A stretch of DNA of 54,889 nucleotides from a virus (taxonomy: Duplodnaviria; Caudoviricetes): IMG/VR virus record IMGVR_UViG_3300014656_006066, positions 1 to 54,889 of that record. One strand, given 5' to 3'. The notes below the pieces were generated by a model. It saw only the letters and a list, made by a program, of their open reading frames with translations. It was not told the origin of the DNA and did no database searches. The position numbers and the translations under genes are program-made. This document shows, one piece after another, positions 268 to 44,630 of this stretch (position 1 is its first letter; every line of letters begins with the position of its first letter).

Positions 268-525
268 ATGATTATTCGATACAAGCTCCGCGGCGAGGAA
301 CCGACAACCATAGACCTCGCTGGATTTAACGATTTCCGGGTATGGCTACACGACCTCGGGGCAGGGGACGACGTGACCGCGCCGGACATCCTCGCCCGAT
401 GGGCCGTACTCTATCGCGAGCTCGCCGATCCTGATTTTCGGCCCCGTTGCATAGGACTATCGCGGGTCAAATTCGGGGCAGAGATAACACTACTCGGCGG
501 CGAAAAAAACCGAGAAATCGTATAG
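268..525 (+). CDS. hypothetical protein
   Basis: 85-aa ORF, no motif, no clear RBS. Confidence 0.45.
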   Translation: MIIRYKLRGEEPTTIDLAGFNDFRVWLHDLGAGDDVTAPDILARWAVLYRELADPDFRPRCIGLSRVKFGAEITLLGGEKNREIV

Positions 526-3639: not shown

Positions 3640-3965
3640 CACATTTACACTTCAATGTGTAAAATCGGCTAAAGTGTAAAAAAATAAATCTAACCACCAT
3701 AACGGATTACACACTTTTACACACATAACGCCGGAAACGACAGGATATAATACATATATACACGACTACGTTTACTACCTTTACTAGGCTTACTACCTAG
3801 CAAAGGGAGTAAACCTAGTAAACCTAGTAAATGAACCTCGCCATGAATACTATCCCGTTTTAAGTGTAAAAGAGTAAAATATAATAATAATAATAATAAT
3901 ATAATATATTATTATATATTATATATATACTTATTTTCTTTACACTTTATTTTACACTTCGATTT
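3640..3965. repeat. AT-rich region with TTTACAC/GTGTAAA and TTACTA/TAGTAAA repeats; candidate replication origin
   Basis: Many short repeats in both orientations around an almost pure A/T tract (~3877-3940) in a GC-rich genome. Confidence 0.6.
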
Positions 3966-4040
3966 TTTCAACTTACCAGACGTTAAGGCGTAAACTGTCA
4001 AATTAAGCCGCTCCGGCCTGAAAAACGCTTGGCTCGACTA

Positions 4041-4074
4041 TACGTTTATCCGTCCGTTCGCTCACAATCTCCGC
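4041..4074 (+). promoter_or_regulatory. late-promoter motif variant TACGTTTATC
   Basis: Motif starts 34 nt before ATG 4075; CACAAT at -12..-7. Confidence 0.6.
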
Positions 4075-4872
4075 ATGGACGACTTCCACGCATCGACTGA
4101 TATGCGAGCCCTTGAAAAAATGTTTCTCATCGCGCCAGCAGAGACTCGCAAGGCTACGGCGAGATTTCTTAATGACGAGGCGTTCGCAGACAAGACGCTA
4201 TCCGAGCGCGTATTGTCCGAGCGGTATATCGTGAGGAATCGTGCATTCGTCCGGGCCATGCTACGCGTAGAAAAAGCCGATCCTGCGAGGCCGCCCTCGA
4301 ACCAGGTCGCCATAGCAGGGTCAATTCGCACGAACAGATTTACCGGATGGGCTGAGGTCATACCAGGCGGACCGGATCCCGAGCGCAACCGGACGCTAGG
4401 CCTCAATGCACGCGGGGGAGACTCTACTAAAAAAGCGCTCCAAGGTAGCCGCCTGCTATCAGGGCTCACATTCGAGAGGCCGTCGAACTACGACGAGATA
4501 CCCGAGCGTATGCGCATACCCGCTATGATATCGATACTAGCCAGGTGCCCCGACTATACGGCAGATGGCAGGGGTATGTTCATCATTCAGGGCGGCAACT
4601 GGGTACACGGGCTCTACAAGTTCAAGAACAAGGGGCAGGTGGCTAAGTGGCGCAAATCTCGCAAGGGTGCCTATACCCTCGTGGACAAGAGGGACACGGC
4701 TACCTACGACAGGCCCGCGGTGCAGCGCGTGCAGACATTCGACAAGGCGCCCAAGGGGCAGCAGTTCAACTGGCCTCAGATCACTATCGATCGTCTCAAG
4801 GTATGGTTCAATCCTCTCGATACATGGGCATCATACTTCGGGGAGATCGTGCGCAAGGCTAATAATAAATAA
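4075..4872 (+). CDS. phage late protein (possibly minor tail/neck gpZ-like)
   Basis: Basic 265-aa ORF just upstream of the cos/terS region; function from position only. Confidence 0.5.
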   Translation: MDDFHASTDMRALEKMFLIAPAETRKATARFLNDEAFADKTLSERVLSERYIVRNRAFVRAMLRVEKADPARPPSNQVAIAGSIRTNRFTGWAEVIPGGPDPERNRTLGLNARGGDSTKKALQGSRLLSGLTFERPSNYDEIPERMRIPAMISILARCPDYTADGRGMFIIQGGNWVHGLYKFKNKGQVAKWRKSRKGAYTLVDKRDTATYDRPAVQRVQTFDKAPKGQQFNWPQITIDRLKVWFNPLDTWASYFGEIVRKANNK

Positions 4873-4882
4873 TTATGTTAAT

Positions 4883-5020
4883 AAAAAGGTACTGTGCGGC
4901 AGGGGGTGGCCGGTGAGGGCGTCATGTCGCGGCGCCCTTTAAACACCAACTGCCAGACTTTTGTAACATTGTAACATTAGGGGCTTGCGTCTCCATAGTT
5001 ACAATGTTACAATGTTACAC
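4883..5020 (+). other. putative cos/packaging initiation region
   Basis: AGGTACT (cosQ-like) 4887-4893; dyad AGGGCG-N11-CGCCCT 4916-4938; TGTAACAT x2 and GTTACA x3 repeats; TTGCGT-17-TACAAT promoter before terS. Confidence 0.5.
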
Positions 5021-5022
5021 GT

Positions 5023-5688
5023 ATGGCAACGATCAATGCGACACAAGCTGAAAAACTCTACGGTACACCACGGATGACGATTCGCCGATGGATAAATTCT
5101 GGCAAGCTCCAGGCCGACAAAGCCGGGTATTTCGAGCCCGCCGACCTCGAGGCATGTCTCGATAAAAAGCGCCCGCACGCGACCAAGGCGGACAAAGCGG
5201 CGGCAACACCCGCGGCCCGTAAGGCCCCGCGGCGGCAGGCCCCGAGCGCTCCGGCGACGGATCCCGATATCATAGACCCGGCGTCCATCGGGGCGCGGGC
5301 GCCGGCAGCGAGTAAACCCGGCGGCACGGTAGGGGCTTCGGCAGGTCGCGAGGCGGCGCGCGCCGGTGCAGATCAAATCGCTATCGGTAAGCAGATCGAT
5401 AACAAGCTCAAGTACACCAAGGGCCAGATCGAAGAGCTGAAGCTCATGATGATGCTTAAGCAAGTGCTGGATTATAACGCGGTCTCGTCCGCGTTTAGCC
5501 TGTTCGCCTCCGCGCTCGAGGAGCAATTCGGGGCATTCGACGAGCGCGAGGGGGCGGCGCTTCATGCCTTGGCCCAGAAGGCGACCGTATCAGAATTCAA
5601 CGCCGAGCTCCGCGACAAGATCGAAAAAGCCCGCAGCTCAATGCTGGCGCTAATCAAAAAAGAGCTGGCGAATCTTAAAAAGGATTGA
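5023..5688 (+). CDS. terS: terminase small subunit (Nu1-like)
   Basis: N-terminal wHTH (ATQAEKLYGTPRMTIRRWINSGKL), C-terminal helical region; upstream of terL. Confidence 0.7.
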   Translation: MATINATQAEKLYGTPRMTIRRWINSGKLQADKAGYFEPADLEACLDKKRPHATKADKAAATPAARKAPRRQAPSAPATDPDIIDPASIGARAPAASKPGGTVGASAGREAARAGADQIAIGKQIDNKLKYTKGQIEELKLMMMLKQVLDYNAVSSAFSLFASALEEQFGAFDEREGAALHALAQKATVSEFNAELRDKIEKARSSMLALIKKELANLKKD

Positions 5689-5720
5689 CGTTTATAGGGC
5701 GCGAGAAGTAAGGAGTATGT
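5687..5720 (+). promoter_or_regulatory. late-promoter motif GACGTTTATA
   Basis: TTGACGTTTATA; motif starts 34 nt before ATG 5721. Confidence 0.7.
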
Positions 5721-6218
5721 ATGCAGGTGCGAGCGTTATCGATTAAGAACCCCGTCTCCTACCTCGTCGCGGCCGGCGTCAAGGACGTCGAGAACCGAAC
5801 GTGGCAGACCGAGTATCGGGGGCGACTATATATCCACTCGTCGGGGGCGAAGGATTTCTTCTTCTTCTCCGAGCGTTGCGCCCGCGACCTCGATAACTTC
5901 GACCGGATCGCCGACCTGCCTGACGATCACTGGTCGTCGATCGCCATGGAGCGATTTTTCAACTGGCAGGCAGCGCGATATGGCCTGCCGAATTTCGACG
6001 ACCGCGAGGCAAACCTCGCCGCGAGCAAGGCGCGCGGACTCCAACTCGTCGCGCGATCGATCATCGGGGCCGTCGATCTCGTAGATATAGTCCAGGACAG
6101 CCCGAGCGAGTGGGCACTCCCTGGTCAATATCACTGGATTCTAAAAAACGCCGAGCTGTTCGACAAGCCCATAGGGGGCGTCGAGGGCCGGCTCAAGATT
6201 TTCCAGGTCGATATCTGA
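5721..6218 (+). CDS. ASCH domain protein
   Basis: LSIKNP...GVKDVENRTW...YRGRLYIHSS (GxKxxExR). Confidence 0.9.
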   Translation: MQVRALSIKNPVSYLVAAGVKDVENRTWQTEYRGRLYIHSSGAKDFFFFSERCARDLDNFDRIADLPDDHWSSIAMERFFNWQAARYGLPNFDDREANLAASKARGLQLVARSIIGAVDLVDIVQDSPSEWALPGQYHWILKNAELFDKPIGGVEGRLKIFQVDI

Positions 6219-6236
6219 CCTGGGGGAGGGTAACGA

Positions 6237-6314
6237 ATGCGTAAACAGTGGCGGGGCGTCGACATAACGCCGAGTGGCCGGGTCTCTCGCGCGAGCGGGA
6301 GCGGCAGGGGCTAG
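6237..6314 (+). CDS. 25-aa Arg/Gly/Ser-rich peptide MRKQWRGVDITPSGRVSRASGSGRG
   Basis: Strong RBS GGGGGAGG; fills the gap exactly and its TAG abuts the next ATG; not in the ORF track. Confidence 0.6.
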   Translation: MRKQWRGVDITPSGRVSRASGSGRG

Positions 6315-6962
6315 ATGCTGGTTCAATCGGCCGAAACGGTCCTAAGGGCGCTCGAAGGGGCGCCCTTTTTGCTCGCCTTTTCTGGCGGCAAGGACTCCGT
6401 AACGATGCTCGACATCGTGGCGCGTGCGCAAATTCCCGGCGCCCGCGTCGTTCACTTCTACCTCGCCCCCGGCATCCCCTCGCGCGAGCGCCTACTCTCG
6501 TATTACGAATCCCGCTATGGCATCAAGATCGATCGCCGCGAGTCCTGGTATGGCGCCACGCTCCGTACCGGCCGGAAGGTGAAACAGGGCGAGACGTTCA
6601 AGGCCCTCCGCGAAGAGTTCGGCGTCAAGTATATCGCCGAGGGCATCAAGCCGACAGACTCGATAATCCGCTGCGCGCTCATCAAGCGGGCGATGGCCGG
6701 AATAAATCACGATATGGGCGCCGTGTACCCGATCTATCGCTGGTACGACTCCGCGGTCATGGCATATATCCGGCAGCATAAACTTCTGTTGCCGCCCGAA
6801 TATCAAGCGAACATGAAACACGACCTCTCGAATGCGACGCTCGAATCGCTCGAGTGGATGAAACATAACTTGCCGGCGGACTATCGCGTGATCCTGGCAA
6901 CGTACCCGAAGCTTGCCGACCGAATGATTCAACGGGAAATGTACGCGGAGGAAGCCCGATGA
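6315..6962 (+). CDS. PAPS-reductase-family PP-loop (adenylating) enzyme
   Basis: AFSGGKDS PP-loop, GIKPTDSIIR, YPIYRWYDSAV; only one Cys, so no Fe-S motif. Confidence 0.85.
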   Translation: MLVQSAETVLRALEGAPFLLAFSGGKDSVTMLDIVARAQIPGARVVHFYLAPGIPSRERLLSYYESRYGIKIDRRESWYGATLRTGRKVKQGETFKALREEFGVKYIAEGIKPTDSIIRCALIKRAMAGINHDMGAVYPIYRWYDSAVMAYIRQHKLLLPPEYQANMKHDLSNATLESLEWMKHNLPADYRVILATYPKLADRMIQREMYAEEAR

Positions 6963-7201
6963 AAGAGAAGCGAGGAATCGTAATACATAAGACAGGAGCG
7001 ATCGGGCCATCGTGCGTTGGCTTGTTCCCAGCGAAGATGGTTTTACCTGATGGTCGAGTAGAACCGCTTATAGTTCGGTGGGACAATCGCGATAGCTTTA
7101 CTTCACCAATGGGGACATTCACTCGCGATCATGAGGGAATATATCGATGGTCATACGATAATCGTGTGACAATGGTGTTACATGAGGTAGCCGTCAACTA
7201 A
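6959..7201 (+). CDS. hypothetical protein (lower GC)
   Basis: ATGA overlap with the upstream gene, GGAGG RBS. Confidence 0.55.
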   Translation: MKEKRGIVIHKTGAIGPSCVGLFPAKMVLPDGRVEPLIVRWDNRDSFTSPMGTFTRDHEGIYRWSYDNRVTMVLHEVAVN

Positions 7202-7247
7202 GCCTAATTTTCCAATCTGACCGTCGTGATGACAGGACAGGGAGACC

Positions 7248-8027
7248 ATGGGAGCCAACAAACTCGAGAAGTTCACCCACGAGCAGGTGAACCGTAAAGA
7301 CATCCACGGCGCCGAGTATAACCCTCGCCGCATAGACTCCGAGACAGAGAAGCGCCTCCGAGCCGACCTCCGCGACGTCGGACTCGTTCAGCCTGTCGTC
7401 GTGAATCGCCAAACCATGAACATCGTTGGCGGGCATCAGCGCGTCAACGCCATGGACGCGATCCTCCGCCGTGACGATTACGACCTAACCGTCGCCATGA
7501 TCGACGTGGACGAACGGGAAGAAGTTAAGATAAATATCCTCCTCAACAATCCCGCAGTGCAAGGCGAATGGGACACGTTCAAGCTCGCGGATCTGAAGCT
7601 CGAGTTTGATTTCAACCCCGACGAATTAGGCTTCAACCTTCAGGACGCCCTCGTTCTTTTCGACCTGAGCGAGTCCGATCCCACGCGCGAGCAGGACGTC
7701 GAGGAGGAGCCGCCCGAGGAATCCGAGGAGCCAGAAGACCCGGACGAGCTCGGCGAGGAACCGAGCGAACAAACGAAACAGAATCGGCTCCACGCCGCGG
7801 CTGCCAGGGCGCAGAACAAGGGGCGGCTCGACGACTACGACGAGAAGGAAAACGACACGCTCCTGACGTTCGTCTTCCCGACAGCCCGAGAAAAACACGA
7901 AATGATGAAGCGCCTCGGAAAGGATATCCGGGAGACGCATCTCCGTTCGTCCGTCCTGTTCGATATCGCAACCGGAAAATATAACTTCACGGACCCGATA
8001 GAGATCATCGAAAATAATGCCCGCTAG
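7248..8027 (+). CDS. ParB/Srx N-terminal domain protein with acidic linker
   Basis: YNPRRID...GLVQPVVVN...IVGGHQR. Confidence 0.85.
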   Translation: MGANKLEKFTHEQVNRKDIHGAEYNPRRIDSETEKRLRADLRDVGLVQPVVVNRQTMNIVGGHQRVNAMDAILRRDDYDLTVAMIDVDEREEVKINILLNNPAVQGEWDTFKLADLKLEFDFNPDELGFNLQDALVLFDLSESDPTREQDVEEEPPEESEEPEDPDELGEEPSEQTKQNRLHAAAARAQNKGRLDDYDEKENDTLLTFVFPTAREKHEMMKRLGKDIRETHLRSSVLFDIATGKYNFTDPIEIIENNAR

Positions 8028-9966
8028 CCTTCTCGAGCAGGTACGAAAAACTAGTTACGACGGGCTTCTGCTCCTGTTCGATTCTCTGGCCGCGCGTACG
8101 ACCCAAGAGGCCCCGTCGGCATGGACTGAGGGTCACCGCGTCTTGCCTCGCGGCACGCCCTTCCCGGGCACCTGGGACAATGCTCGTACTCCGTACCTCA
8201 AAGAGCTCATGGACAACATGGGTCCGCGGTCCCCGGTCCAACATCAATCGTTCGTCAAGGGCGCGCAGCAGGGCGCCACCGCGAGCGCCGAGAACGTCAT
8301 CCTGTATTGGATGGCCGCAAACCCCGCTGCGATCATGTATGTATCCGCGACCGACGACCTCCTCGATAAGTGGGTGAATAAGCGGCTTGAGCCCGCGATT
8401 GATTCCTGCGGGCTCCGCGGGCTGTTCAGCTCACCGACCATCAATCGCTCGAATAGGCGAACGGGCGACAAGACGTTCCTGAAACAATTCCCTGGCGGAT
8501 CCCTAACGATGACGAGTGCGCAGTCTCCGGCCGGCCTTCGCGGCGATACCGTCCGCGTCCTCATCCGCGACGAGATTGACGGCTGTCCCCGAATGCTGAC
8601 CACGGGCGAAGGCGATTGGCTCGAGGTCTCGCGCGTGCGTACGAATGGCTTCGGGCACCGCCGGAAGATATTCGACCTCTCAACCCCGACCCTGTTCGGC
8701 GAGTCCGCAATATGGGACCAATTCGAGGCGGGCGACCAGCGTTATTTTTTCGTACCGTGCCCGATATGCGGAAAGTACCAGGTCTTGAAATGGGACAACA
8801 TCCGCCCCGATTCAAAGGCCGGCCAGCTCCTCGACGCATACTACCTCTGCGAGTATTGCCACGAGGCTATATTCCACGACCAGAAAGCCGCAATGTTAGC
8901 CGCCGGGCGATGGGAGCCCGCGAAGCCGTGGAGCGACGAGGATCGCTCGTACCAGCTCTCGACCATGTACTCGCCTCACGGCATGGTCGACTGGAAGGAT
9001 ATGTATTCCGAGTCCGTCCGTCACCAGGAAAAGAACGACATGCGTTCGTTCGTGAACCTGTACCTCGGCTTGCCGTTCAAGGATGAAGGTTCGCGGCCAG
9101 ACCTGAAAACCGTTATCGAGCTACGAGGGTCGTATAAGCAGGGCGCCGTTCCAGAAGGCGTTTTATATCTCACTGTTGGCGTTGACGTGCAGCGCGGATC
9201 GGAAAAGGACGAGAAAAACCCAGCCCGATTAGAACTTGAAGTCCTCGGGCATGGAATTGGGTATCGCACCTGGTCGATTGACTACCAGCGAATCGAAGGG
9301 TCGATTAATGACCCGTATTCGGGAGCCTGGGAGAAGCTTCACCAATGGGCAACGGATGGCGGACTTACATATAAGCGTCGCGACGGGACTGAATTCTCAG
9401 CTAAGTGCATATTTATCGATTCTGGCGATGGCGAAAGCATGGAGGTCGTCTATCGATTCTGTAGTCGATGGCGGAATACCTACCCGAGCAAGGGATTCCC
9501 GTTTGTTAAGGTCGACCCGAAGAAACGAGAGAAGGGGGATATCCCCGGCGGCGAGTACAAGAAATACCGTTATGCGAACGTAGGCGGAGACCAATTTATT
9601 TATGAGATCAACACCCGTTTCTATAAGCGATTGATTTATAACAACTTAAAAGTACGCCGTGTCGAGACCCAGCTACAGCCTCCCGGATTTTGTGAATTCC
9701 CATACGATTATGACGAGCAACATTTTGAGGGATTGCGTTCAGAAGAGCAACGAAGCGATGGCAGTTTCTATTGTCCAAGTGGCCGAAGGAATGAACAGCT
9801 TGATACCAGGGTCTACGCGCTATGTGCCGGTGATGTATGGCTTAATGCCGAGACTGAACGGGTACGGAAGTATTATCGCGACCAAGGGCTAGCCGTCGAG
9901 CAAGTCCAGCAGATCACCGGCCGCGTCGTCCTCGATATGCTCGCCGCAAGGCTCGCGGCGAAATAA
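8017..9966 (+). CDS. terL: terminase large subunit, lambda gpA family
   Basis: RTPY, KGAQQGAT Walker A, RDEID Walker B, STPT, CPICG..CEYC, GVDVQ nuclease, RNEQLD. Confidence 0.95.
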   Translation: MPASLLEQVRKTSYDGLLLLFDSLAARTTQEAPSAWTEGHRVLPRGTPFPGTWDNARTPYLKELMDNMGPRSPVQHQSFVKGAQQGATASAENVILYWMAANPAAIMYVSATDDLLDKWVNKRLEPAIDSCGLRGLFSSPTINRSNRRTGDKTFLKQFPGGSLTMTSAQSPAGLRGDTVRVLIRDEIDGCPRMLTTGEGDWLEVSRVRTNGFGHRRKIFDLSTPTLFGESAIWDQFEAGDQRYFFVPCPICGKYQVLKWDNIRPDSKAGQLLDAYYLCEYCHEAIFHDQKAAMLAAGRWEPAKPWSDEDRSYQLSTMYSPHGMVDWKDMYSESVRHQEKNDMRSFVNLYLGLPFKDEGSRPDLKTVIELRGSYKQGAVPEGVLYLTVGVDVQRGSEKDEKNPARLELEVLGHGIGYRTWSIDYQRIEGSINDPYSGAWEKLHQWATDGGLTYKRRDGTEFSAKCIFIDSGDGESMEVVYRFCSRWRNTYPSKGFPFVKVDPKKREKGDIPGGEYKKYRYANVGGDQFIYEINTRFYKRLIYNNLKVRRVETQLQPPGFCEFPYDYDEQHFEGLRSEEQRSDGSFYCPSGRRNEQLDTRVYALCAGDVWLNAETERVRKYYRDQGLAVEQVQQITGRVVLDMLAARLAAK

Positions 9967-10025
9967 AAGAGCCGGCCCGGGTAAGGAGGAGGAACCCCGG
10001 GCCGGCAACTCGAAGGAAACCGTCA
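9961..10025 (-). ncRNA. candidate ~65-nt small RNA with anti-Shine-Dalgarno loop, ending in an intrinsic terminator
   Basis: 11-bp stem 9971-9981/9996-10006, loop GUUCCUCCUCCUUA, U-tract UCUUUUAUUU on - strand; inverted promoter motif upstream. Confidence 0.5.
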
Positions 10026-10031
10026 ATCCAT

Positions 10032-10060
10032 ACGATATAGGGAGTGCATATAAACGTCTA
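10032..10060 (-). promoter_or_regulatory. late-promoter motif TAGACGTTTATA, inverted copy
   Basis: Plus-strand TATAAACGTCTA 10049-10060; TATCGT -10-like at 10037-10032. Confidence 0.6.
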
Positions 10061-10105
10061 GGATATTTTTCTTGAGTTATCGACCGGGCGTTTTTGATTT
10101 TACGC

Positions 10106-10141
10106 TAGACGTTTATACGGCTCCCGGTGCATTCGTTGATT
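10106..10141 (+). promoter_or_regulatory. late-promoter motif TAGACGTTTATA...GCATTCGTTGATT
   Basis: GACGTTTATA 10108-10117 starts 34 nt before ATG 10142. Confidence 0.75.
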
Positions 10142-10417
10142 ATGACCGCCGATCAATATGCCCGGTACCAGACGCGCCGCGACGACTACATAGCCAAGCG
10201 AACGAAGGTATCCAAGTCCCTCGATTCCGCCCTCGAGGTAGCCGACGTTCAGACGTACTCGGTAAACGATCCCGAGGGTGGGCAGTCCGTAACGCGGCGA
10301 AAGATCGATGAATTAACTAAACAACTAGAGTATTACGATCGCCAGATTGATAACCTCGACAGACTTCTCGGCACCGGCGGCGGCCTCGTATCGGTGAATA
10401 TGCGGAGGCGCCTGTGA
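10142..10417 (+). CDS. head-tail joining protein (gpW-like)
   Basis: Small helical protein between terL and portal; QTYSV...SVTRRKIDEL. Confidence 0.65.
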   Translation: MTADQYARYQTRRDDYIAKRTKVSKSLDSALEVADVQTYSVNDPEGGQSVTRRKIDELTKQLEYYDRQIDNLDRLLGTGGGLVSVNMRRRL

Positions 10418-12084
10418 CCATCCTCGACAAAGTATTCCCGAAGACGGCTGCGCGAATGCGGAACGAATCCGCCAGGATTGCGGCAACCGCGATTGCGAAC
10501 AGCCTCAAGGCTTCGGAGTTCGGGCGTAGCGGCTCGCTCTACTACGGCCAGAAATGGGAAGGCGGACTCGCTTCTTCCGCACCGTCGCTCATGATTGACC
10601 ATTCGCGGATGCGCAGGCAGGCCCGGACGATCGAGCAGACGAGCCAACAGGCTAGGGCAATAATAAATCGTGACGTCGATACCGTTGTCGATTCCGGCAT
10701 GGTACTCGCACCTGAACCGAAATATGAAACGCTTGGTATCACCGCCGAGGAAGCCGAGCGCTGGGCCGCTCGCACCGCCGAGGGGTTCGACCTATGGGCG
10801 CAATCCAAGACATCCTCGAGATCAAATTCCTATAATTTCTACCAGGGCCAGCGCCTCATGCGTCGTTACCGCGGGCGCGACAATGAGTGTTTCGTCCGTC
10901 AGTATTACTCCCAAGGCCCCGGTCTTATATCCCCGCTTCAATTCGAGATCCTTGACCCCGACCAGATCCGAGGCGAAGGCTACACCCTGACCTCAGGGAA
11001 TTTCGCACAGGACGATGGCATCGAGCGAGACAGCCAGGGCCGGGAATCCGGCTACAAGATATGGCATCAAGTACCGGGGACGCTACGCTTTGAAGCCATT
11101 ACGATCCCGCGCGTAGGCCCGAAGTCCGGCCGCGTGTTCATGACCCATGGATTTGACCCCGACTTCGCCGGGCAGACCCGCGGGTTCTCCTCGCTCGGTA
11201 TATCCGTCCAGGAACTCGAGAACCTTCTCGATTTTACGAGCGCGCAGATCAAGAAGGCGATCAACCAATCGAATATATTCATCGTCGGCGAATCGAATAA
11301 TGACAACCCCGTTGTCAACCCATTCGATTCCATGGGGAAGGCCGGGCCTGTTCCGAGCGAAGTATTCGGATCCACCCCGACAGTCTACCCCGATGGCGAA
11401 AATCCTGAATCTCTGGCGACATACCTGAATATCCCCGAAGCCGCGGTCTCGTCGCCCGGTAGCGTTGGCATTTTCAACATGCCGGGTAGGCAGTCCGCGA
11501 AACCATTCGCGAACACTGCCCCTTCCGATTCCTACGACAAGTTCGTCGATGCTTATTTCGCGTATATCGCCGCAGCGCAGGGCACGTCGATCGAAGTCGT
11601 TCTCATGCGGTTCTCGAATAACTATTCCGCTAGCAGGGCGACCCTCATCCTCGCGTGGCGCATCGCCGTTCAGCGCCGGTATCAGCTCGCGTGCGATCAC
11701 CTGGACCCGCTCTATGAAGCGTGGATATCCGAAGAGATCGCCGCAGGTAGAATCAGCGCCCCGGGCTGGTCAGACCCCCGCCTGCGCGCCGCGTGGCTCG
11801 CGCACCGCTGGGTAGGTTCGTCCATGCCGAACATCGACCCGGTGCAGACGGTTAAGGCGACGGAACTCGCCGCCAAGCTAGGCCTCACGACTCTAGATGA
11901 CTCCTCGATGGAATACAACGGCTCGAGCGGTAAGTCGAACCGCGCCAAGCTCGCCCGCGAGTATGCCGAACTGCCGAAGGTTCCATGGGAGATCGCGAAG
12001 CCTGGAGCCGAAGAGAACGAGCCTCCGGCTGGCGAGGGACAATCGGACCGCGACGAGAAGAAAAAAGCAGGAGGCAATAAGTAG
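10414..12084 (+). CDS. portal protein, lambda family
   Basis: DGIERD..GR..GY, GQTRG, NYSASRA, IDPVQ motifs. Confidence 0.92.
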   Translation: MTILDKVFPKTAARMRNESARIAATAIANSLKASEFGRSGSLYYGQKWEGGLASSAPSLMIDHSRMRRQARTIEQTSQQARAIINRDVDTVVDSGMVLAPEPKYETLGITAEEAERWAARTAEGFDLWAQSKTSSRSNSYNFYQGQRLMRRYRGRDNECFVRQYYSQGPGLISPLQFEILDPDQIRGEGYTLTSGNFAQDDGIERDSQGRESGYKIWHQVPGTLRFEAITIPRVGPKSGRVFMTHGFDPDFAGQTRGFSSLGISVQELENLLDFTSAQIKKAINQSNIFIVGESNNDNPVVNPFDSMGKAGPVPSEVFGSTPTVYPDGENPESLATYLNIPEAAVSSPGSVGIFNMPGRQSAKPFANTAPSDSYDKFVDAYFAYIAAAQGTSIEVVLMRFSNNYSASRATLILAWRIAVQRRYQLACDHLDPLYEAWISEEIAAGRISAPGWSDPRLRAAWLAHRWVGSSMPNIDPVQTVKATELAAKLGLTTLDDSSMEYNGSSGKSNRAKLAREYAELPKVPWEIAKPGAEENEPPAGEGQSDRDEKKKAGGNK

Positions 12085-12381
12085 ATGGCGAAGTTCATTG
12101 AAGCCATGATCGTAGCGGCGGCTGGATCGTTAATCGCTGGGGTAATTATTGCTATTAAAACATTGCTAACAATGAGCCGGGATATCAAGGGCTTCTCCCC
12201 TTCTCTTCAGGCCCTCGCAGCGATCCAGCCTCTCATGATTCGCGCAACCCGACATCAGAACGGGGCGCTCAGGGAAATAGGTGCTAACGGGGCGACCCAT
12301 AAAGCTGACGAATGCCTCGATGAGGCTGAGTCGGTCTTGAACGAGCTTCTTGTCAAGAAAATCGGAGGCGAGACGAAATGA
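12085..12381 (+). CDS. single-TM protein, putative holin/antiholin
   Basis: N-terminal TM; directly upstream of the putative endolysin. Confidence 0.5.
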   Translation: MAKFIEAMIVAAAGSLIAGVIIAIKTLLTMSRDIKGFSPSLQALAAIQPLMIRATRHQNGALREIGANGATHKADECLDEAESVLNELLVKKIGGETK

Positions 12382-13007
12382 AAGTCTACAACCTCTCTCC
12401 GACGAAAGAAAACTATTACCGCCAGAACAATAACGAGCTAGACCCCGATATCGTATGTAAGCCGACAGCAACCATCGAAGCCCTCGCCCTTGCAGGCTGG
12501 CCGTTTCCATCAGGCAAGTATCCTCAGCCCGAGGACAACCTCACCGAATTATGCCTTACGGGCGAGGCCTATACGGTTATGCTTGGCATTGACGCCAGCC
12601 TCGCAGGAATACGCCCGAACGAAGTATGGGGCGTCATTGCCTGGGCGATTAACGAGCGATGGTATCCAACGTATCGCCCACTGATCGGCCCGCCCTGGAA
12701 TTGGGGACTTCGCGAGGTTCTTTATGGCATATCCCGCGGCGTCCCGTTCGCGACCTCGACGCGGCTCACGAAAGGCGGTCACGTTGTCAACCTCGTCGGG
12801 TACGTGACGAAACAGGACAAGGCCCCGCGCGTATGGGCCGACATCGACTTCGATGCGATTACGGAATTCATCATCGATGACCCGTACGGCGATCGCACAA
12901 GCGGCCGCTACGACACCACGAAATCAGGATGGAACAACCACTATCCGAAAGACGAATGGCTACGCTTATGGCGTGGCGTGGGCGTCCAGGTGCGCCCGAA
13001 GGAGTAG
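12378..13007 (+). CDS. peptidase C39-like putative endolysin
   Basis: YYRQ..C, GGHVV, IDDPYG papain-fold Cys-His-Asp pattern. Confidence 0.7.
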   Translation: MKVYNLSPTKENYYRQNNNELDPDIVCKPTATIEALALAGWPFPSGKYPQPEDNLTELCLTGEAYTVMLGIDASLAGIRPNEVWGVIAWAINERWYPTYRPLIGPPWNWGLREVLYGISRGVPFATSTRLTKGGHVVNLVGYVTKQDKAPRVWADIDFDAITEFIIDDPYGDRTSGRYDTTKSGWNNHYPKDEWLRLWRGVGVQVRPKE

Positions 13008-13009
13008 CC

Positions 13010-13258
13010 ATGTTCTCGATGTTCCGCGAAGCCCCGCTCCCCGACGGAAAGCCCGGTCCGGTATCGATGCGCCGCATTCTCGCGCTGTTCTTCTCCCTCG
13101 CGGCCGTCGCCCTGTTCTTTTCGGCGATCCCCGGCGCGTCGGCCGGATGGTACGGCTTCATCCCCGGCGGGCTCTGCCTTGTAGCCGCGCTCGCGCTCTT
13201 GTTCCTCACGACGGCCGGCGACATAGCGACGGTCATATCCGCGGCTCGGAAGTCGTGA
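13010..13258 (+). CDS. two-TM membrane protein, putative holin
   Basis: SMRRILALFF..., two hydrophobic segments; AAGGAG RBS. Confidence 0.6.
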   Translation: MFSMFREAPLPDGKPGPVSMRRILALFFSLAAVALFFSAIPGASAGWYGFIPGGLCLVAALALLFLTTAGDIATVISAARKS

Positions 13259-13632
13259 AACGGTATGTCGCGACGGCTCTTATCGCTCTTGCTTGCGGCA
13301 TCCTTCTTGGCCTCACCATTGGTAGCGGAGCCGGTTCGGACGCCGAATTGGAGAACCGAGCTCGCCGTGCTGAAATCATTCTCGAAAAAGCTGTCGACGG
13401 AAGTCGCCGCGCAGGCCTCGCTCTTGCAGTCGTCGAGCGACGAAATCGAGAGCTTGAAGCAGAAGCTCGCGGACTCCGAGAAGAGAATCGAGAGCATCGA
13501 GAAGCTCTTGAGCGAATCGACGGAATCAACGCTGACCTTACGGCAGGAAATGGACGACTTGCGGACATCGCTCGAGGAATTGCAGGAAGCATTCAACGAT
13601 TGGAAACTGGCCTCGGAATCGAAAATCCGTAG
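13255..13632 (+). CDS. N-anchored coiled-coil protein (i-spanin-like)
   Basis: GTGA-coupled start, MKRYVATALIALACGILLGL TM then heptad-rich helix. Confidence 0.5.
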   Translation: MKRYVATALIALACGILLGLTIGSGAGSDAELENRARRAEIILEKAVDGSRRAGLALAVVERRNRELEAEARGLREENREHREALERIDGINADLTAGNGRLADIARGIAGSIQRLETGLGIENP

Positions 13633-13810
13633 GCTTGAAATCGAGCGATCAATATATCGTGCCTCCGCCCTTATCGCAGCGGGCGCCGCCGCCGGCGCAT
13701 TGATTGCGGATTGGCCCGGGGCAGGAATTGGCACAGGTGTAGGAATAGTAATTACCGCGATTATCGAAATCAAGGCTAGACGTTTATACGCGTTAAGGGG
13801 CATTCGTTAA
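13265..13810 (+). CDS. signal peptide + coiled-coil + C-terminal TM protein (spanin-like), overlapping +1 frame
   Basis: MSRRLLSLLLAASFLASPLVA signal, long coiled coil, Gly-zipper TM hairpin. Confidence 0.55.
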   Translation: MSRRLLSLLLAASFLASPLVAEPVRTPNWRTELAVLKSFSKKLSTEVAAQASLLQSSSDEIESLKQKLADSEKRIESIEKLLSESTESTLTLRQEMDDLRTSLEELQEAFNDWKLASESKIRRLEIERSIYRASALIAAGAAAGALIADWPGAGIGTGVGIVITAIIEIKARRLYALRGIR

Positions 13811-13812
13811 TT
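13777..13812 (+). promoter_or_regulatory. late-promoter motif TAGACGTTTATA...GCATTCGTTAATT
   Basis: GACGTTTATA 13779-13788 starts 34 nt before ATG 13813. Confidence 0.75.
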
Positions 13813-15144
13813 ATGCGGGAAATCTTGTATGCGGCCGAACCAGAATACATTCGCTCGTATCTCGAGGCGCGTCTCAATACGCGTCCCGAAGATATGGCTG
13901 CCGCGCGCGAGCTGTTCCCGAATATCGCCGGCCCCGGTTCGCCCGAGGCAATAGACAAGATTTATTCACGCGATGGCGACGCAGCCGTAATCCGCGTCGA
14001 GGGTCCGCTTTCCATCGAAGGCCCCGACGCCTGGGATATGGCGTATGGCTACGGCGGCGTATCGTATCAGACGATCATCGGCGCTTTCATCCGCGCGGCC
14101 GATGATCAAGGCGTCGCCCGCGTCCGCGTCGAAGCGAATACCCCTGGCGGGACCGTAGATGGCGCCGACGCAACGTATCTCGCCGCTCGCGACCTCGAGT
14201 CCAAGAAGGCAATCGATACCGTCGTTTCAGGAATGCTCGCGAGCGCCGGATACTATGCGCTCTGCCCATCGTCCGAGATATACGCGTCGAACCCGACCAA
14301 CACCGTGGGCAGTATCGGCGTCATCGTCGCCGCCTGGGATTTCTCCGGCGCATACGAAGGCATGGGCATCAAGCGCGTTGAAATCCGATCCAAGAACGCC
14401 CCGAAGAAAGCTGCGAACCCCGGTACGAAAACTGGCCGCGACGTTCTTCAGGAGCGCGTCGACGCCATAGAGCGCGTATTCTATTCCCGCATCAGCGAAG
14501 CCCGCGGCGTCACGCCGGACGAGATCGCCGAACGCTTCGGGCAAGGCGCGCTCCTCATCGCGCAGGATCCGAGCCCCGACGTTCCCGACGCCCTCCGCGC
14601 GGGCATGATCGACGGCATCCTGGAAGGCGCAGGCCTCGGCCGCACCGGGCGCCGCGCACACGCTTCCGAATCGAACAACGCCGAGCCGTTGGCCCAGGCG
14701 AATAACCCCGCGTCAGCGGGAAGTCAACAGGAGGTTCCATCGATGAACCTGAACGAATTCCTGGCGCAGGGCCCCGCCGCGGTCGCTGAGATAGATCGCC
14801 TCAAGTCCGACGCCCGAGCCGAAGGCAAGAGCACCGCCGAGGCTGCGGCTCTGGTGAAGCAGACACGTATCGCCGCCGTAATGGGAAGCGAAGCCTACGC
14901 GAAGGACGCGATTATCGCCACGAAGGCGGCGGCGTGTCTCAAGGGCGATATCAGCCTTGACGCGTTCGAGACCGTAGTCGCCACGGCCGACATGATCGGG
15001 GAGCGCCTGAAATCCCGCGCCGCCGCCGGCGAGACCGGCGACCAGGGCGAGACCCACGGTCAGGCGCCCGCGGGCGAAGCGGCCGAGATCGCCAGCGCCG
15101 CGGCGCTCATCGCGTCCGGCGGCAAGCTCCAGGAGGTGAAGTAA
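13813..15144 (+). CDS. head maturation protease, S49 family (gpC-like)
   Basis: NTPGG, ASAGY, VGSIGV motifs. Confidence 0.9.
   Translation: MREILYAAEPEYIRSYLEARLNTRPEDMAAARELFPNIAGPGSPEAIDKIYSRDGDAAVIRVEGPLSIEGPDAWDMAYGYGGVSYQTIIGAFIRAADDQGVARVRVEANTPGGTVDGADATYLAARDLESKKAIDTVVSGMLASAGYYALCPSSEIYASNPTNTVGSIGVIVAAWDFSGAYEGMGIKRVEIRSKNAPKKAANPGTKTGRDVLQERVDAIERVFYSRISEARGVTPDEIAERFGQGALLIAQDPSPDVPDALRAGMIDGILEGAGLGRTGRRAHASESNNAEPLAQANNPASAGSQQEVPSMNLNEFLAQGPAAVAEIDRLKSDARAEGKSTAEAAALVKQTRIAAVMGSEAYAKDAIIATKAAACLKGDISLDAFETVVATADMIGERLKSRAAAGETGDQGETHGQAPAGEAAEIASAAALIASGGKLQEVK
14743..15144 (+). CDS. nested in-frame scaffold protein (Nu3-like)
   Basis: Internal AGGAGG 14729-14734 plus in-frame ATG (MNLNEFLAQ), as in lambda C/Nu3. 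Confidence 0.7.
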   Translation: MNLNEFLAQGPAAVAEIDRLKSDARAEGKSTAEAAALVKQTRIAAVMGSEAYAKDAIIATKAAACLKGDISLDAFETVVATADMIGERLKSRAAAGETGDQGETHGQAPAGEAAEIASAAALIASGGKLQEVK

Positions 15145-15504
15145 ATGCCCGAAACCTATGTCCCCGATAATCTCGGCCCCGTCGGTAGCTTTCCGGTCAT
15201 CACGGATAGCGTGACCATCCTAACCGGGCAGGGCATCCTCACGCGAGGCACGGTCCTCGGTAAGATCACCGCCTCCGGGAAGTATATCAAGTCACTGTCC
15301 GGCGCCTCCGACGGTTCGCAGACTCCCGCCTGTATCCTCGCCGAGACGGTTGACGCGACGAGCGCCGATGCTCCCGCTGTCGTCTACCTATCCGGCGAGT
15401 TCAGCGGCGCCGCGCTCATCCTCGGCACCGCGCATACCATCGCAACCGTCAAGGCAGCGTTCCGCGCCCTCAGCATCTTCATTAAGACCACGCTCGCCGC
15501 GTAG
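15145..15504 (+). CDS. head decoration protein (gpD-like)
   Basis: GTVLGKITASGKY...DGSQTPACILA. Confidence 0.88.
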   Translation: MPETYVPDNLGPVGSFPVITDSVTILTGQGILTRGTVLGKITASGKYIKSLSGASDGSQTPACILAETVDATSADAPAVVYLSGEFSGAALILGTAHTIATVKAAFRALSIFIKTTLAA

Positions 15505-15517
15505 TCGTTCCCCCGCC

Positions 15518-15560
15518 CAACGTCGTGAGACAGTCGGGCAATTTTTCAACGTCGTGAGAC
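15518..15560 (+). repeat. tandem CAACGTCGTGAGAC GNRA-tetraloop hairpins before the capsid RBS
   Basis: 14-nt direct repeat at 15518-15531 and 15547-15560. Confidence 0.8.
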
Positions 15561-15575
15561 GTAGAGGAGTAGCTA

Positions 15576-16619
15576 ATGGCTATCGACATGTATGATACAC
15601 GGGTCATGCTCCCCGCGCTCGAGCAGATACCGCGTCCCCGGACCTTCCTCCTGGACACCTTCTTCAAGAACGTCCGCAAGTCGGATTCCGAATACATCGA
15701 CATCGACATGGTGAAGAGGAAGCGCCGCGTCGCCGTCTACGTGAAGCCCATCGAGCAGGGTCACGTCGTCGACAAAGGGGGTTTCGAGACGAAGACCTAT
15801 AAGGCGCCGTATATCAAGGAAAAGATGAAGACCACGGCCGGCGACATCATGCGTCGCGCCGCCGGGGAGAACGTCTACTCCGCCTCGACACCGCAGCAGC
15901 GCTTCGCCGCTCGTCTCCGCGAGGAGCTGACCGAACTCGACGACATGATCACCCGCGCCGAGGAAATCCAGGCGTGTCAGGCCATGTTTACCGGGAAGGT
16001 GGTCGCCAAGAACGAGAAGGGCGAAGCTATACAGCAGGTCGACTTTCTTCTACCGGCGAGCCACAACGTCGTGCTCTCCGGTACGGACCTCTGGTCTGAC
16101 GCCGCGTTCAAGAAGAACGCGCTTCTCAAGCAGCTTCGCGACAACCGCCGCCTCCTCGTGAAGGATTCCGGCAGGGCGCCGACCGACCTCATTCTTGGAA
16201 GCGATGCGATGGACAAGTTCATCGACATTCTCGACCCCGATTCTACCACGGCCGGTCTGTCGTCCATGCGCGTCGAGCGTGGACAGCTCGACATATCAAA
16301 CCTCCCCTCCGGCGTCACGTATCTCGGGTACTTCAAGGAGCTCGGCGTCGACGTGTGGAGCTATGACGAGTGGTACCACAACGGATCGGCCGACGTTGCG
16401 ATGCTCGACCCCAAGAAGGTATGGCTGGGCTCCCGGAACGCCCGCTTTGACCGCAACTACGCCGCGATCCAGGACCTCGACGCCCTGTTCGCCGTTGAAC
16501 GCTTCCCGAAGTCTTGGACGCAGGATGACCCCAGCGCGCGCTTCCTCATGCTTCAGTCCGCCCCGCTCATGGCTCCGCACGAAGTCGATAGCTTCTACGT
16601 CGCCCAGGTGCTCGCGTAA
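15576..16619 (+). CDS. major capsid protein (lambda gpE family)
   Basis: FLLDTFF, KAPYIKEK, C-terminal DPSARFLMLQSAPL. Confidence 0.93.
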   Translation: MAIDMYDTRVMLPALEQIPRPRTFLLDTFFKNVRKSDSEYIDIDMVKRKRRVAVYVKPIEQGHVVDKGGFETKTYKAPYIKEKMKTTAGDIMRRAAGENVYSASTPQQRFAARLREELTELDDMITRAEEIQACQAMFTGKVVAKNEKGEAIQQVDFLLPASHNVVLSGTDLWSDAAFKKNALLKQLRDNRRLLVKDSGRAPTDLILGSDAMDKFIDILDPDSTTAGLSSMRVERGQLDISNLPSGVTYLGYFKELGVDVWSYDEWYHNGSADVAMLDPKKVWLGSRNARFDRNYAAIQDLDALFAVERFPKSWTQDDPSARFLMLQSAPLMAPHEVDSFYVAQVLA

Positions 16620-16629
16620 GGCGGCCGGC

Positions 16630-16950
16630 ATGCGCATAGAAGTAATCGAAGGCGCAATCCAGCACGACGGCGGTCTGCACGTTGCGGGGACCGAATCCGC
16701 CGTGTTCGAGATCAAGGACGACAAGGAGGCCAAGCGTCTCATCGACCTCGGGAAGGCCAAGGCCGTCAAGGGCCGCCCGCCCTCCGAGACCGCCGCCGAG
16801 AAGAAGGCCCGCGAGGAAGCCGAGGCGGCTGCCGAAGCTCGCGCGGTTCTCGAGGCCAAGGCGGTTGAGAAGGGCGCGGGTACCGCCGAGGAAGTCGCGA
16901 AGCTCTCCGACGACGAACTCGCCGAGCTCCTGAAGGAGGCCGCCGAATGA
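16630..16950 (+). CDS. small head-associated protein (gpFI-like position)
   Basis: EAKRLIDLGKA motif, Ala/Glu-rich; follows the capsid gene. Confidence 0.55.
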   Translation: MRIEVIEGAIQHDGGLHVAGTESAVFEIKDDKEAKRLIDLGKAKAVKGRPPSETAAEKKAREEAEAAAEARAVLEAKAVEKGAGTAEEVAKLSDDELAELLKEAAE

Positions 16951-17114
16951 TCGTCCCCGCCGGCCAGACCATAAACATCGGCGCCCGCGAATACCAGTCG
17001 GGCGCCGAAATCCCCGACGACATCGCCCGCGCGGCCGGACTCAACATCGAGCCGGCCGCGGCGAAGAAGTCGGTCCGGCAGGCCCCCGACGCGACGGAGG
17101 CGAACGAATCGTGA
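16947..17114 (+). CDS. 55-aa hypothetical virion-cluster protein
   Basis: AAGGAGG RBS, ATGA and GTGA overlaps at both ends. Confidence 0.6.
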   Translation: MIVPAGQTINIGAREYQSGAEIPDDIARAAGLNIEPAAAKKSVRQAPDATEANES

Positions 17115-17509
17115 CCAACGTCCGCGCGCTGGCAGAAAGAGACCTCGGGCACACCCTCGAAAGGGAAATGGGAATTGCGGTCGCATTGATCGCACCCGAT
17201 GGCCTGAAAATCTCCACGACAAACGACGGCCGCCCCCTCGTAGGCCGAGTGCTCTGGAGCCAGCCGCGGACGAATACCGAATCCGGCGAAGTCGTGATCG
17301 TACCCGATCCCGTAGTAGAGCTTCGACGATCATCGCTCTCTCGCGTTCCCCTGACTGGCGAACACTGGTCAGTCATCATACCGTCCGGCCCAACCGCAGG
17401 CGCTCCGCTCGAGATATATATGCTCGACGCCTCGCGCTCGCTCGAGGGCGGCCGGAACCTCGGGGTTATCAAGCTCCCGCTTCAGCGGGTAAAGCAGGCG
17501 GTACCGTAA
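17111..17509 (+). CDS. head closure/head-tail adaptor
   Basis: Beta-rich 132 aa in neck position. Confidence 0.55.
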   Translation: MTNVRALAERDLGHTLEREMGIAVALIAPDGLKISTTNDGRPLVGRVLWSQPRTNTESGEVVIVPDPVVELRRSSLSRVPLTGEHWSVIIPSGPTAGAPLEIYMLDASRSLEGGRNLGVIKLPLQRVKQAVP

Positions 17510-18144
17510 TGGAATTCGAGAACATCAAGGACGCCCTCGACACTCTCCTCGAAACCAACGCCGCCGGCCGCTTCGCTGTCCTCGGTACCCGTAAACGTAG
17601 CCACGACGCCGAGGTCGTGCATAACCGCGCCCAGGTCACGACGTACTACGCGAACGGTGATTTCCCGAAATCCGGCGGATCATACGGCGGCCCGTTCCAG
17701 CACGACGTCATCTTGAAAATAGAATTCCTCGTATCGGCTGCCGCACGTGCCGATCTCGCAATCCTCAATAATCCCCAGGCAACGGCGCCCCAGCTTACCG
17801 CAGCGCTCGCGGCCTCTACAGACGCAACCGCTGAGGCTGACGCGGCGCTGGACGCCCTGGTATCCACGGTATGGAACATCATCATGAGCCCGGAGAATTC
17901 CAAGCTCGGCTTGTCCTACAACCCCCAGCGTTGGATAACCGGATTCCAGAAAAACGATCCCTCCCCGAAGGGCGCCCTCGTCCTACTGTCGGGCTCGATG
18001 ACCATGATCGCATCCGTCCTGGAATATCCGACTCCTGAAGTCGGCGTCCCGGGCGTCTCCGTAGACACGACCGTGAAACTAACCGCCGACGTATCCGGCG
18101 AAACCCTCGACACCGCCGCGCAAGGCGTAAAGGAAGGTGCATAA
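17509..18144 (+). CDS. tail terminator/neck protein
   Basis: Directly upstream of the sheath gene. Confidence 0.5.
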   Translation: MEFENIKDALDTLLETNAAGRFAVLGTRKRSHDAEVVHNRAQVTTYYANGDFPKSGGSYGGPFQHDVILKIEFLVSAAARADLAILNNPQATAPQLTAALAASTDATAEADAALDALVSTVWNIIMSPENSKLGLSYNPQRWITGFQKNDPSPKGALVLLSGSMTMIASVLEYPTPEVGVPGVSVDTTVKLTADVSGETLDTAAQGVKEGA

Positions 18145-19722: not shown

Positions 19723-19737
19723 GGAGAAAAACAGAAT

Positions 19738-19962
19738 ATGGTAAGAGCGAAGTTCAAGGTCGATTCGGTCACGGAATTCCCGGATGTTTCTTCGATTGTA
19801 CTATCCGTCGTGACGGCAGGAGCGGGCGAGGAAAACAAGAAGTTTTTTAAATGGACTCCCGGTGGGAAAATTGAAATGGGGGTTGTTAGCAAGGAAACCG
19901 CCGCACGGTTTAGGCCGGGCAGGGAATATTTCGTCGATTTCACTCCCATAGAGGAGGCGTAA
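19738..19962 (+). CDS. small hypothetical protein
   Basis: TAAGGAG RBS; VRAKFKV...ENKKFFKWTPGG...EYFVDFT. Confidence 0.75.
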   Translation: MVRAKFKVDSVTEFPDVSSIVLSVVTAGAGEENKKFFKWTPGGKIEMGVVSKETAARFRPGREYFVDFTPIEEA

Positions 19963-19965
19963 GCC

Positions 19966-20349
19966 ATGGCACAAGACATAGTCGGAACCCCGAATAAAGT
20001 CGGGATCGGCGGCTTCCAGTATCGCGTCGCGGCCGACGCCGATTTCAAGCACGGGAAGCCCGCATACAAGAACGAGGGCGAAGAGACTACGGGCGGCACC
20101 TTCCGCAAGATGACGAAGCAGTCGCAGGAGGTCGAAAGCGTCACCCTCAAGGTCAACGCCGACGAACTCGAGCGCCTGAAGGAAGCCGCCGAATCCAAGA
20201 AGCCGCTCAACCTCTCGTACGAGACGGTCGAGGGCAGCGTATACCGCGGCCAGGGCTTCATCGATTACGACGGACGCCAGACGGCGAGCGGGAAGGTCGA
20301 AGTCAAGATGTTCCCACAGAACGGATGGACGTCGTTTACCGCGAAGTAA
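19966..20349 (+). CDS. tail tube protein
   Basis: 127 aa beta-rich, between sheath and chaperone. Confidence 0.7.
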   Translation: MAQDIVGTPNKVGIGGFQYRVAADADFKHGKPAYKNEGEETTGGTFRKMTKQSQEVESVTLKVNADELERLKEAAESKKPLNLSYETVEGSVYRGQGFIDYDGRQTASGKVEVKMFPQNGWTSFTAK

Positions 20350-20399
20350 CTGTATCGGGGCCGTAGTCCAGCGGCCCTATATTTTCCAGGAGGCACGAA

Positions 20400-20998: not shown

Positions 20999-21009
20999 AA
21001 AGGAACCCG

Positions 21010-26199: not shown

Positions 26200-26248
26200 C
26201 GACCAGAAGAACCGAGGCCGAAATGATGTCCAGAACCGAGGCCCCCGT

Positions 26249-44616: not shown

Positions 44617-44630
44617 TTCGTGCGTCCTCC

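Follow-up and report, generated by a model that had tools for sequence, protein, structure and literature searches.

Here, we report that a complete IMG/VR provirus record (IMGVR_UViG_3300014656_006066; 54,889 bp without host flanks, hereafter the window) probably carries a small-RNA gene on the minus strand, in the gap between its large terminase gene, terL, and a gpW-like head-tail adaptor gene. The predicted RNA ends in a terminator hairpin with an unusually large loop, GUUCCUCCUCCUUA, that resembles the 3' end of 16S rRNA, i.e., the anti-Shine-Dalgarno (anti-SD) sequence. We propose, tentatively and with less confidence than we place in the gene, that the RNA acts by pairing of this loop with the ribosome-binding sites (RBSs) of a subset of the phage's messages. 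The features of the locus are the following.

8017 to 9966, plus strand: terL, large terminase of the GpA type (phrog_15, E 2.9e-147; PF05876 and PF20454 on homologues), convergent with the small RNA.
9961 to 9970, minus strand: U-tract UCUUUUAUUU, overlapping the terL stop codon (9964 to 9966).
9971 to 10006, minus strand: terminator hairpin of 11 G-C pairs with the 14-nucleotide (nt) loop GUUCCUCCUCCUUA (9995 to 9982).
10007 to 10025, minus strand: CU-rich single-stranded leader GACGGUUUCCUUCGAGUU, about 18 nt plus the predicted 5' end, with the transcription start site predicted at about 10024 to 10026.
10032 to 10037, minus strand: -10-like hexamer TATCGT, 17 bp past the -35 hexamer; part of a predicted promoter.
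10050 to 10061, minus strand: inverted copy of the phage promoter motif, CTAGACGTTTAT, an exact match that includes the -35-like hexamer TAGACG (10060 to 10055).
10105 to 10116, plus strand: divergent exact motif copy, the putative promoter of the gpW-like/portal operon, with the ATG at 10142 lying 37 nt from the motif start and no SD.
10142 to 10417, plus strand: gpW-like head-tail adaptor gene (phrog_118, E 5e-05), probably read from a leaderless mRNA.

The candidate unit runs from 10061 to 9961 between the terminase and head-tail genes, in a gap of 175 bp, and the portal gene comes after the gpW-like gene. Positions 9971 to 9981 pair with 9996 to 10006, and the enclosed 14 nt (9982 to 9995) read TAAGGAGGAGGAAC on the plus strand. 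As in an intrinsic terminator, the G+C-rich stem is followed directly by a U-tract on the minus strand; past the hairpin on the plus strand there is none, and the sequence runs on as AACUCGAAGG. The predicted RNA overlaps the terL open reading frame (ORF) by 6 nt (9961 to 9966) and is otherwise intergenic. A 67-nt minus-strand RNA folds at -29.9 kcal/mol (z score -3.81, with none of 200 shuffles folding as well) versus -27.0 kcal/mol (z -2.52) for the plus strand of the same segment. The fold is a single strong hairpin; any stem in the first 18 nt is marginal, with no more than 2+2 bp. Five terminator-like hairpins in the window have a stem of at least 9 bp; the loop described here has 14 nt and those of the other four have 3 to 6 nt. 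The start site was placed from the position of the -10 hexamer and from the 37-nt spacing between motif and ATG seen at plus-strand motif copies. An earlier note on this DNA had claimed an inverted motif copy directed toward terL (given as 10049 to 10060, the same site read as TAGACGTTTATA), an 11-bp GC stem working as a terminator on the minus strand alone, and a 14-nt loop like the 16S rRNA 3' end; our reanalysis recovered all three.

Two other candidates in the gap were rejected. A 45-amino-acid ORF with a TTG start (9889 to 10026) runs through the RNA, is not kept in the closest relative, and has different frames through the loop there. A cos or pac site was dismissed on position; in GpA-type phages, cos lies upstream of the small terminase subunit. 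Elsewhere in the window, between two plus-strand early genes, a GC hairpin (GGGGCC cgga GGCCCC, 1310 to 1325) also has a U-tract on the minus strand only and so shares the odd orientation of the small-RNA terminator.

Conservation of the terL-gpW gap, which the earlier note had named as a check, supports a separate minus-strand unit that shares the motif of the plus-strand operons. A metagenome scan found 47 loci, a single one of which is close (L066, positions 3742 to 13712 of the 69,383-base contig MTLD01001180.1). The two terL proteins are identical at 569 of 648 residues (87.8%), and in the codon alignment 116 of 282 4-fold sites (41%) are identical, which places neutral sites near saturation. 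Yet L066 has the same architecture: a hairpin just past the terL stop, a minus-strand U-tract UCUUUUUUUAU, an inverted motif, and an exact plus-strand motif at 6089. With probabilities computed at a neutral identity of 41%, the inverted motif (CTCGACGTTTAT) matches that of the window at 11 of 12 positions at the syntenic site (P for at least 11/12, 4e-4), the -10 block TATCGTATG at 9 of 9 (P = 3e-4), and the loop at 13 of 14 (P = 8e-5). The L066 loop reads GUUCCUCCUCUUUA, so a complementary RBS tag would read UAAAGAGG. In contrast to these blocks, the 12-nt promoter spacer upstream of the -10 block has drifted (5/12 identical) with both hexamers and their spacing kept, the 5' leader has largely diverged but retains CCUCC, and the inverted and divergent motif copies lie 13 bp apart rather than the 43 bp of the window. 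A conserved loop and conserved promoter blocks amid a drifted spacer are what one would expect if both the promoter and the loop are functional.

The stem itself has covaried. Its L066 arms (GACCGACCCGGG / CCCGAGUCGGUC) differ from those of the window at three pairs, two of which changed on both sides from G-C to A-U and are compensatory. The third is a U-G pair on the minus strand and a C.A mismatch on the plus strand. An extra pair has been gained at the base, and the L066 hairpin folds at -33.4 kcal/mol on the minus strand and at -27.5 kcal/mol (z -4.02) on the plus strand. The minus strand is favored as that of the functional RNA by its promoter and U-tract as well as by the wobble pair.

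Loops of the same kind recur in other phages. The exact loop 14-mer occurs at least 116 times among the matches listed from IMG/VR loci, nearly always as an ordinary RBS. In L124 (575 to 672, plus strand), it is the loop of an unrelated 12-bp stem beside another hairpin and a further CCUCC, in the early region near a replication initiator gene. In L128, a 159-kb phage contig, it forms the apical loop of a long hairpin (about 290 to 407, minus strand; z -9.4) downstream of a Rha/Ant-like regulator gene; this unit has TTGACG-17-TACAGT (9/12) upstream, a strong U-tract (CUUUUCUUUUU) after the hairpin, and three CCUCC copies, in the loop, at the 5' end, and in an internal loop. In L086, whose terL is 50% identical to that of the window, the same terL-gpW gap (4506 to 4598, plus strand) holds a 10/12 sigma70 promoter and a terminator with the loop ACCUCCCC, predicting a CU-rich RNA of about 55 nt. 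Among 572 hairpins in a terminator-loop census of 1.79 Mb of phage loci, loops held CCTCC in 8 cases versus GGAGG in 3 and CTCC in 22 versus GGAG in 5, counts that are suggestive only because part of the loci were retrieved with the loop 14-mer. That other phages have this 13- to 14-nt loop on stems of unrelated sequence suggests that the design has recurred and is not a single instance.

Wider searches added little. A blastn search of 50,697 phage records returned no match to the window, two scans of species genomes gave no match, and a terL search of viral contigs found only two distant loci, at 50% and 41% identity. The motif 15-mer had one match in each of 61 loci among viral contigs, which we took as chance. 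A 19-mer of hairpin plus loop had no match, and patterns of the loop flanked by GC gave two and one matches with nothing beyond L124 (the L222 match is an RBS, and that in L235 looks coding). When the terL-gpW gaps of the window and 36 relatives were scanned for terminators, the element was common to the window and L066 only; L075, L089, and others have unrelated hairpins there. Over 9500 to 28600, no variants, indels, or joints were apparent in contigs from two groundwater-metagenome DNA runs from which the window may derive.

The design of the candidate RNA is that of known anti-SD-loop small regulatory RNAs (sRNAs). At gathering thresholds, Rfam gave only two tRNA-like matches in the whole window and none at the small-RNA locus. 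Under relaxed settings, the best subthreshold matches at the locus were all on the minus strand and all to anti-SD-loop sRNAs: ar14 (RF02344; 21.9 bits, E 0.018, versus a gathering score of 58.8), CcsR1 (RF02791; 20.1 bits, E 0.0055, versus 65.3), LhrC (RF00616; 20.7 bits, E 0.39, versus 110), and Atu_C10 (RF02497; 17.1 bits versus 60). The cuckoo RNAs of Alphaproteobacteria (ar14/NfeR1, CcsR1-4/RSs0680, and Atu_C10) are described as rows of 2 to 4 hairpins in which the stems vary with compensating changes, loops of 9 to 27 nt carry the ultraconserved anti-SD motif CCUCCUCCC, and the last hairpin serves as terminator, and NfeR1 has been shown to silence mRNAs by RBS occlusion (PMC4615179, PMC10746234). 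The candidate places an anti-SD loop on its terminator hairpin, its stem has compensating changes between the window and L066, and its 14-nt loop matches the cuckoo motif at 8 of 9 positions (CCUCCUCC followed by U). Unlike the cuckoo RNAs, it has one hairpin, its motif ends in UUA (as does the 16S rRNA 3' end) where theirs ends in C, and it is prophage encoded under the phage's own promoter motif. We do not class it as a cuckoo member but as an RNA of shared design, because its scores fall far below threshold and it has a single hairpin.

Comparable mechanisms are described outside this family. In Listeria monocytogenes, the CU-rich terminator loop of LhrC binds the SD region of lapB mRNA, and CU-rich loop motifs of LhrC and of the UCCC-loop sRNAs RNAIII, RsaE, SprD, and FsrA pair with the SD of targets and block initiation (PMC4132741). 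The RNA described here differs from LhrC in scoring below the gathering threshold, in having a CCUCC rather than a UCCC motif, and in being single copy and phage borne. Among phage RNAs, c4 of P1/P7 pairs through loop sequences around an RBS, and OOP and aQ of lambda are short antisense RNAs (PMC12197685). Like these, the candidate is a short phage-encoded RNA proposed to control phage genes; unlike them, it maps to the late region and is preceded by a late-type motif, and its complementarity is of the generic, rRNA-like anti-SD kind rather than specific to one locus.

The phage motif itself is overrepresented and marks gene starts. Allowing up to two mismatches, the window has 8 matches, versus 2.10 ± 1.54 in shuffles, and none of 100 shuffles reached 8; three matches are exact. 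At five of the six plus-strand matches (4038, 5684, 10105, 13776, and 32818; the exception is 12569), an ATG lies exactly 37 nt from the motif start, and the syntenic plus-strand copies in L066 have an ATG at 37 to 38 nt in 4 of 4 cases. The motif core, GACGTTTAT, is centered near -30 relative to the ATG, a position that we take to recall activator boxes such as the T4 MotA box. In 12 of 36 relative loci (L004, L066, L071, L078, L079, L088, L090, L091, L093, L094, L097, and L102), a TNGAC[AG] hexamer lies 35 to 37 nt before the ATG or GTG of an ORF of at least 60 amino acids downstream of terL; most have TTGACA-17-(-10)-6/7-ATG before a gene of about 90 to 110 amino acids, mostly gpW-like. A gpW-like gene that starts on or beside the first transcribed base looks like a family trait of these GpA-terminase phages. 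Motif-led first cistrons are plausibly leaderless, as the earlier note had held of the late ones. Direct repeats (GTTACAAT GTTACAAT GTTACA, 4995 to 5022) stand directly before the ATG of an HTH_17 gene (5023) and may be an operator or supply a TACAAT -10 element for another short-leader start.

In the mechanism that we propose, host RNA polymerase, probably aided by a factor reading GACGTTTAT, would start at the sigma70-like promoter TAGACG-17-TATCGT, which diverges from the neighboring promoter driving the leaderless gpW/portal operon, and would produce an independent minus-strand RNA of about 64 nt, from about 10024 to 9961. Transcription would end at the intrinsic terminator, with the large loop exposing its copy of the 16S rRNA 3' end. 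The loop, perhaps together with the 5' tail, which is also rich in CU, would pair with purine-rich RBSs and keep the 30S subunit off, as do the cuckoo (ar14/NfeR1/CcsR) and LhrC-type sRNAs, of which this RNA would be a single-hairpin phage analogue. RBS occlusion by an anti-SD loop, the mode of action that the earlier note proposed, thus has well-studied precedents (PMC4132741, PMC4615179, PMC10746234). Motif-driven first cistrons would escape the RNA, since they have no SD. The strongest candidate targets, by extended complementarity, are a tail-fiber gene (9 bp, with a possible 11-bp second contact) and three UAAGGAGG-led genes that head the leftward early operon (8 to 9 bp).

28298 to 28396, plus strand: leader of the tail-fiber gene, candidate target; a long-range hairpin, then AGGAGGAAC, then the ATG at 28396, with pairing predicted.
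28386 to 28394, plus strand: RBS match AGGAGGAAC before the ATG at 28396, the best loop match (9 bp).
44616 to 45831, minus strand: three consecutive early genes, candidate targets, with ATGs at 45810, 45233, and 44616 and TAAGGAGG before each.

Both sets of complementarity had been noticed in part by the earlier note, which named the tail-fiber RBS and early RBSs such as TAAGGAGGA, before the ATG at 44616. Matches of at least 8 nt to the complement of the loop number 19 in the window, 4 of them at RBSs. The early tag TAAGGAGG is the exact complement of the 3' half of the loop, CCUCCUUA, and its three copies outside the RNA locus are all at the RBSs of these consecutive early genes; one of them (ORF 44631 to 45233) weakly matches a DNA polymerase processivity factor. 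The tail-fiber assignment of the gene at 28396 is weak (phrog_26525 at 2.7e-08 and phrog_9370 at 2.1e-07). The arms of the hairpin in its leader (28298 to 28355) repeat the small-RNA stem: CCCGGGCCGG (28299 to 28308) and GCCGGCCCGGG (28344 to 28354) are a 10-mer and an 11-mer identical to 9996 to 10005 and 9971 to 9981, and they end 31 nt upstream of the RBS match. By our own estimate, an 11-mer of this kind would fall within 60 nt of one particular site by chance with a probability of about 1e-4, and the arms may be a second contact, made by strand exchange, or may reflect shared origin. Cofolding of the small RNA with 11 start regions gave no information on pairing, since kissing between a loop and an RBS lies outside what nested folding can represent.

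The most serious competitor to a trans-acting RNA, albeit an unlikely one in our judgment, is that the unit works in cis or is a by-product: the two motif copies would be a divergent pair of regulator sites, with the hairpin halting antisense transcription before terL, or the RNA would act on terL-gpW read-through in the manner of OOP and aQ, with no target in trans. The RNA is indeed perfectly complementary to any plus-strand read-through transcript, its terminator abuts the terL stop, the divergent motif pair was kept in L066 despite the altered spacing, and the lambda RNAs are precedents for short phage antisense transcripts (PMC12197685). Yet a cis role leaves unexplained both the near identity of the loop at saturated neutral divergence and its recurrence on the unrelated stems of L124 and L128, and it gives no reason for a 14-nt terminator loop when the other strong terminators of the window have far smaller ones. 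RNAs of the OOP type overlap the opposite gene substantially, and here just 6 nt of terL are covered. A role of the plus strand seems to us still less probable. The hairpin would then lie in the terL 3' untranslated region or in read-through mRNA, as a barrier to 3' exonucleases or with its SD-like loop UAAGGAGGAGGAAC as a 30S standby site or decoy or as a CsrA/RsmA site. The plus strand folds well in both the window and L066, its loop has three GGA, loop conservation is strand neutral, and in L124 the SD-like strand has a -10-like GATATAAG upstream and the anti-SD strand a weak U-tract. Against this stand the central pair of the L066 stem (C.A on the plus strand, G.U on the minus), the conserved TATCGTATG and U-tract, which make sense for the minus strand only, and the units of L128 and L086, whose promoters and terminators lie on the anti-SD strand. 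The loop is not followed by a start codon; the ATG of gpW, which lacks an SD, lies about 150 nt off. CsrB/RsmZ-type RNAs are discrete transcripts with several short GGA loops; the locus has one hairpin, its plus strand lacks a promoter and terminator of its own, and no CsrB/Rsm family appears there in Rfam even at E ≤ 10. The CsrA-type site that the earlier note offered as an alternative has nothing in its favor beyond the GGA repeats.

The earlier note had also proposed a translation-takeover circuit, in which the RNA would titrate host and early SDs in bulk so that only leaderless late cistrons were translated. The 16S-like loop does co-occur with leaderless motif-driven cistrons, and early genes have very strong SDs. 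However, at least 10 internal late cistrons depend on ordinary SDs (12085, 12378, 15145, 15576, 17111, 19966, 20400, 23899, 25149, and 28396), among them the major head gene (15576) and the tail-fiber gene, and a bulk SD block would hit these late genes of the phage itself. Candidates for leaderless starts are only 5 cistrons, one short RNA would presumably need to outnumber all SD-bearing mRNAs, and the anti-SD-loop sRNAs described in PMC4132741 and PMC10746234 act on defined regulons rather than globally. We consider a global takeover highly improbable, and this claim of the earlier note was not upheld.

Several observations weigh against the trans-acting small RNA that we prefer. The evidence comes from DNA sequence. 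Its promoter, judged against a sigma70 layout of -35 and -10 hexamers 16 to 18 bp apart with A second and T sixth in the -10, is a modest match to the consensus (8/12 by our own count), and its U-tract is interrupted. A consensus scan of the window, which required at least 9/12 for promoters and considered terminator loops of 3 to 8 nt only, called neither the promoter nor the terminator; the terminator was missed because its loop exceeds that limit, and the missed promoter counts against the unit. Loop conservation by itself is blind to strand and comes from one close relative, of which 10 kb are available; those 10 kb have no RBS match to the L066 loop, and a G-to-A change in that loop weakens its match to UAAGGAGG. 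In L124, the U-tract is poor and the element lies inside an 81-amino-acid ORF. A comparison of the four stems (window, L066, L124, and L128) found changes on both sides at 9 of 12 pairs, a count biased by the selection of L124 and L128 for the presence of stems; these two need not be homologous to the others. By duplex energy, many ordinary SDs score close to the proposed targets, with no sharp divide between these targets and other strong SDs, so that target specificity is weak.

In Alphaproteobacteria and Firmicutes, sRNAs with anti-SD loops have been studied in detail and control defined host regulons, and the small RNA is a phage variant of this known regulator type, not a new type. Our search of published work, which did not extend to the supplementary member lists of the cuckoo family that may include prophage copies, found no stand-alone phage sRNA with an anti-SD loop. 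The case would be notable for a unit under strong purifying selection that has the phage's own promoter motif and lies beside operons that appear to start leaderless. If the pairing is real, RBS occlusion would be a simple way for a temperate phage to time early shutoff or to tune tail-fiber synthesis, and leaderless mRNAs and anti-SD RNAs, usually discussed apart, would become linked. A more speculative and rather doubtful extension is a two-part design, in which GACGTTTAT promoters would fire both leaderless-first operons and an RNA that vies with ribosomes for extended SDs. Translation would then move away from UAAGGAGG-led early transcripts, and perhaps host ones, toward the late program, amounting to an RNA-based temporal switch that acts on ribosome recruitment. 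Equally conjectural is its generalization, that unrelated phage lineages carry terminator-loop RNAs mimicking the 16S rRNA 3' tail. In a bolder variant, the loop may serve as a decoy, drawing off a toxin or host factor whose action is to recognize or cut the 16S anti-SD tail.

Other features of the window and its relatives also concern translation or the terL-gpW gap. The two Rfam tRNA matches, both on the minus strand, lie at 45256 to 45380 and 45856 to 45967 (50.3 and 54.9 bits; spans of 125 and 112 nt), and ARAGORN found no tRNA in the window. These appear from their sequences to be tRNA-like genes with large insertions, and they adjoin the UAAGGAGG-led early genes. Another translation-related gene of the prophage encodes a peptide deformylase (47454 to 47885, minus strand; PF01327, E 8.5e-38). 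In the relatives, L072, L094, and L103 have tRNA-like sequences in the gap after terL, judged by eye, and others have extra genes inserted after terL that look methyltransferase- or HNH-like, also by eye. For the insertion of small genes, the terL-gpW gap looks like a hot spot.

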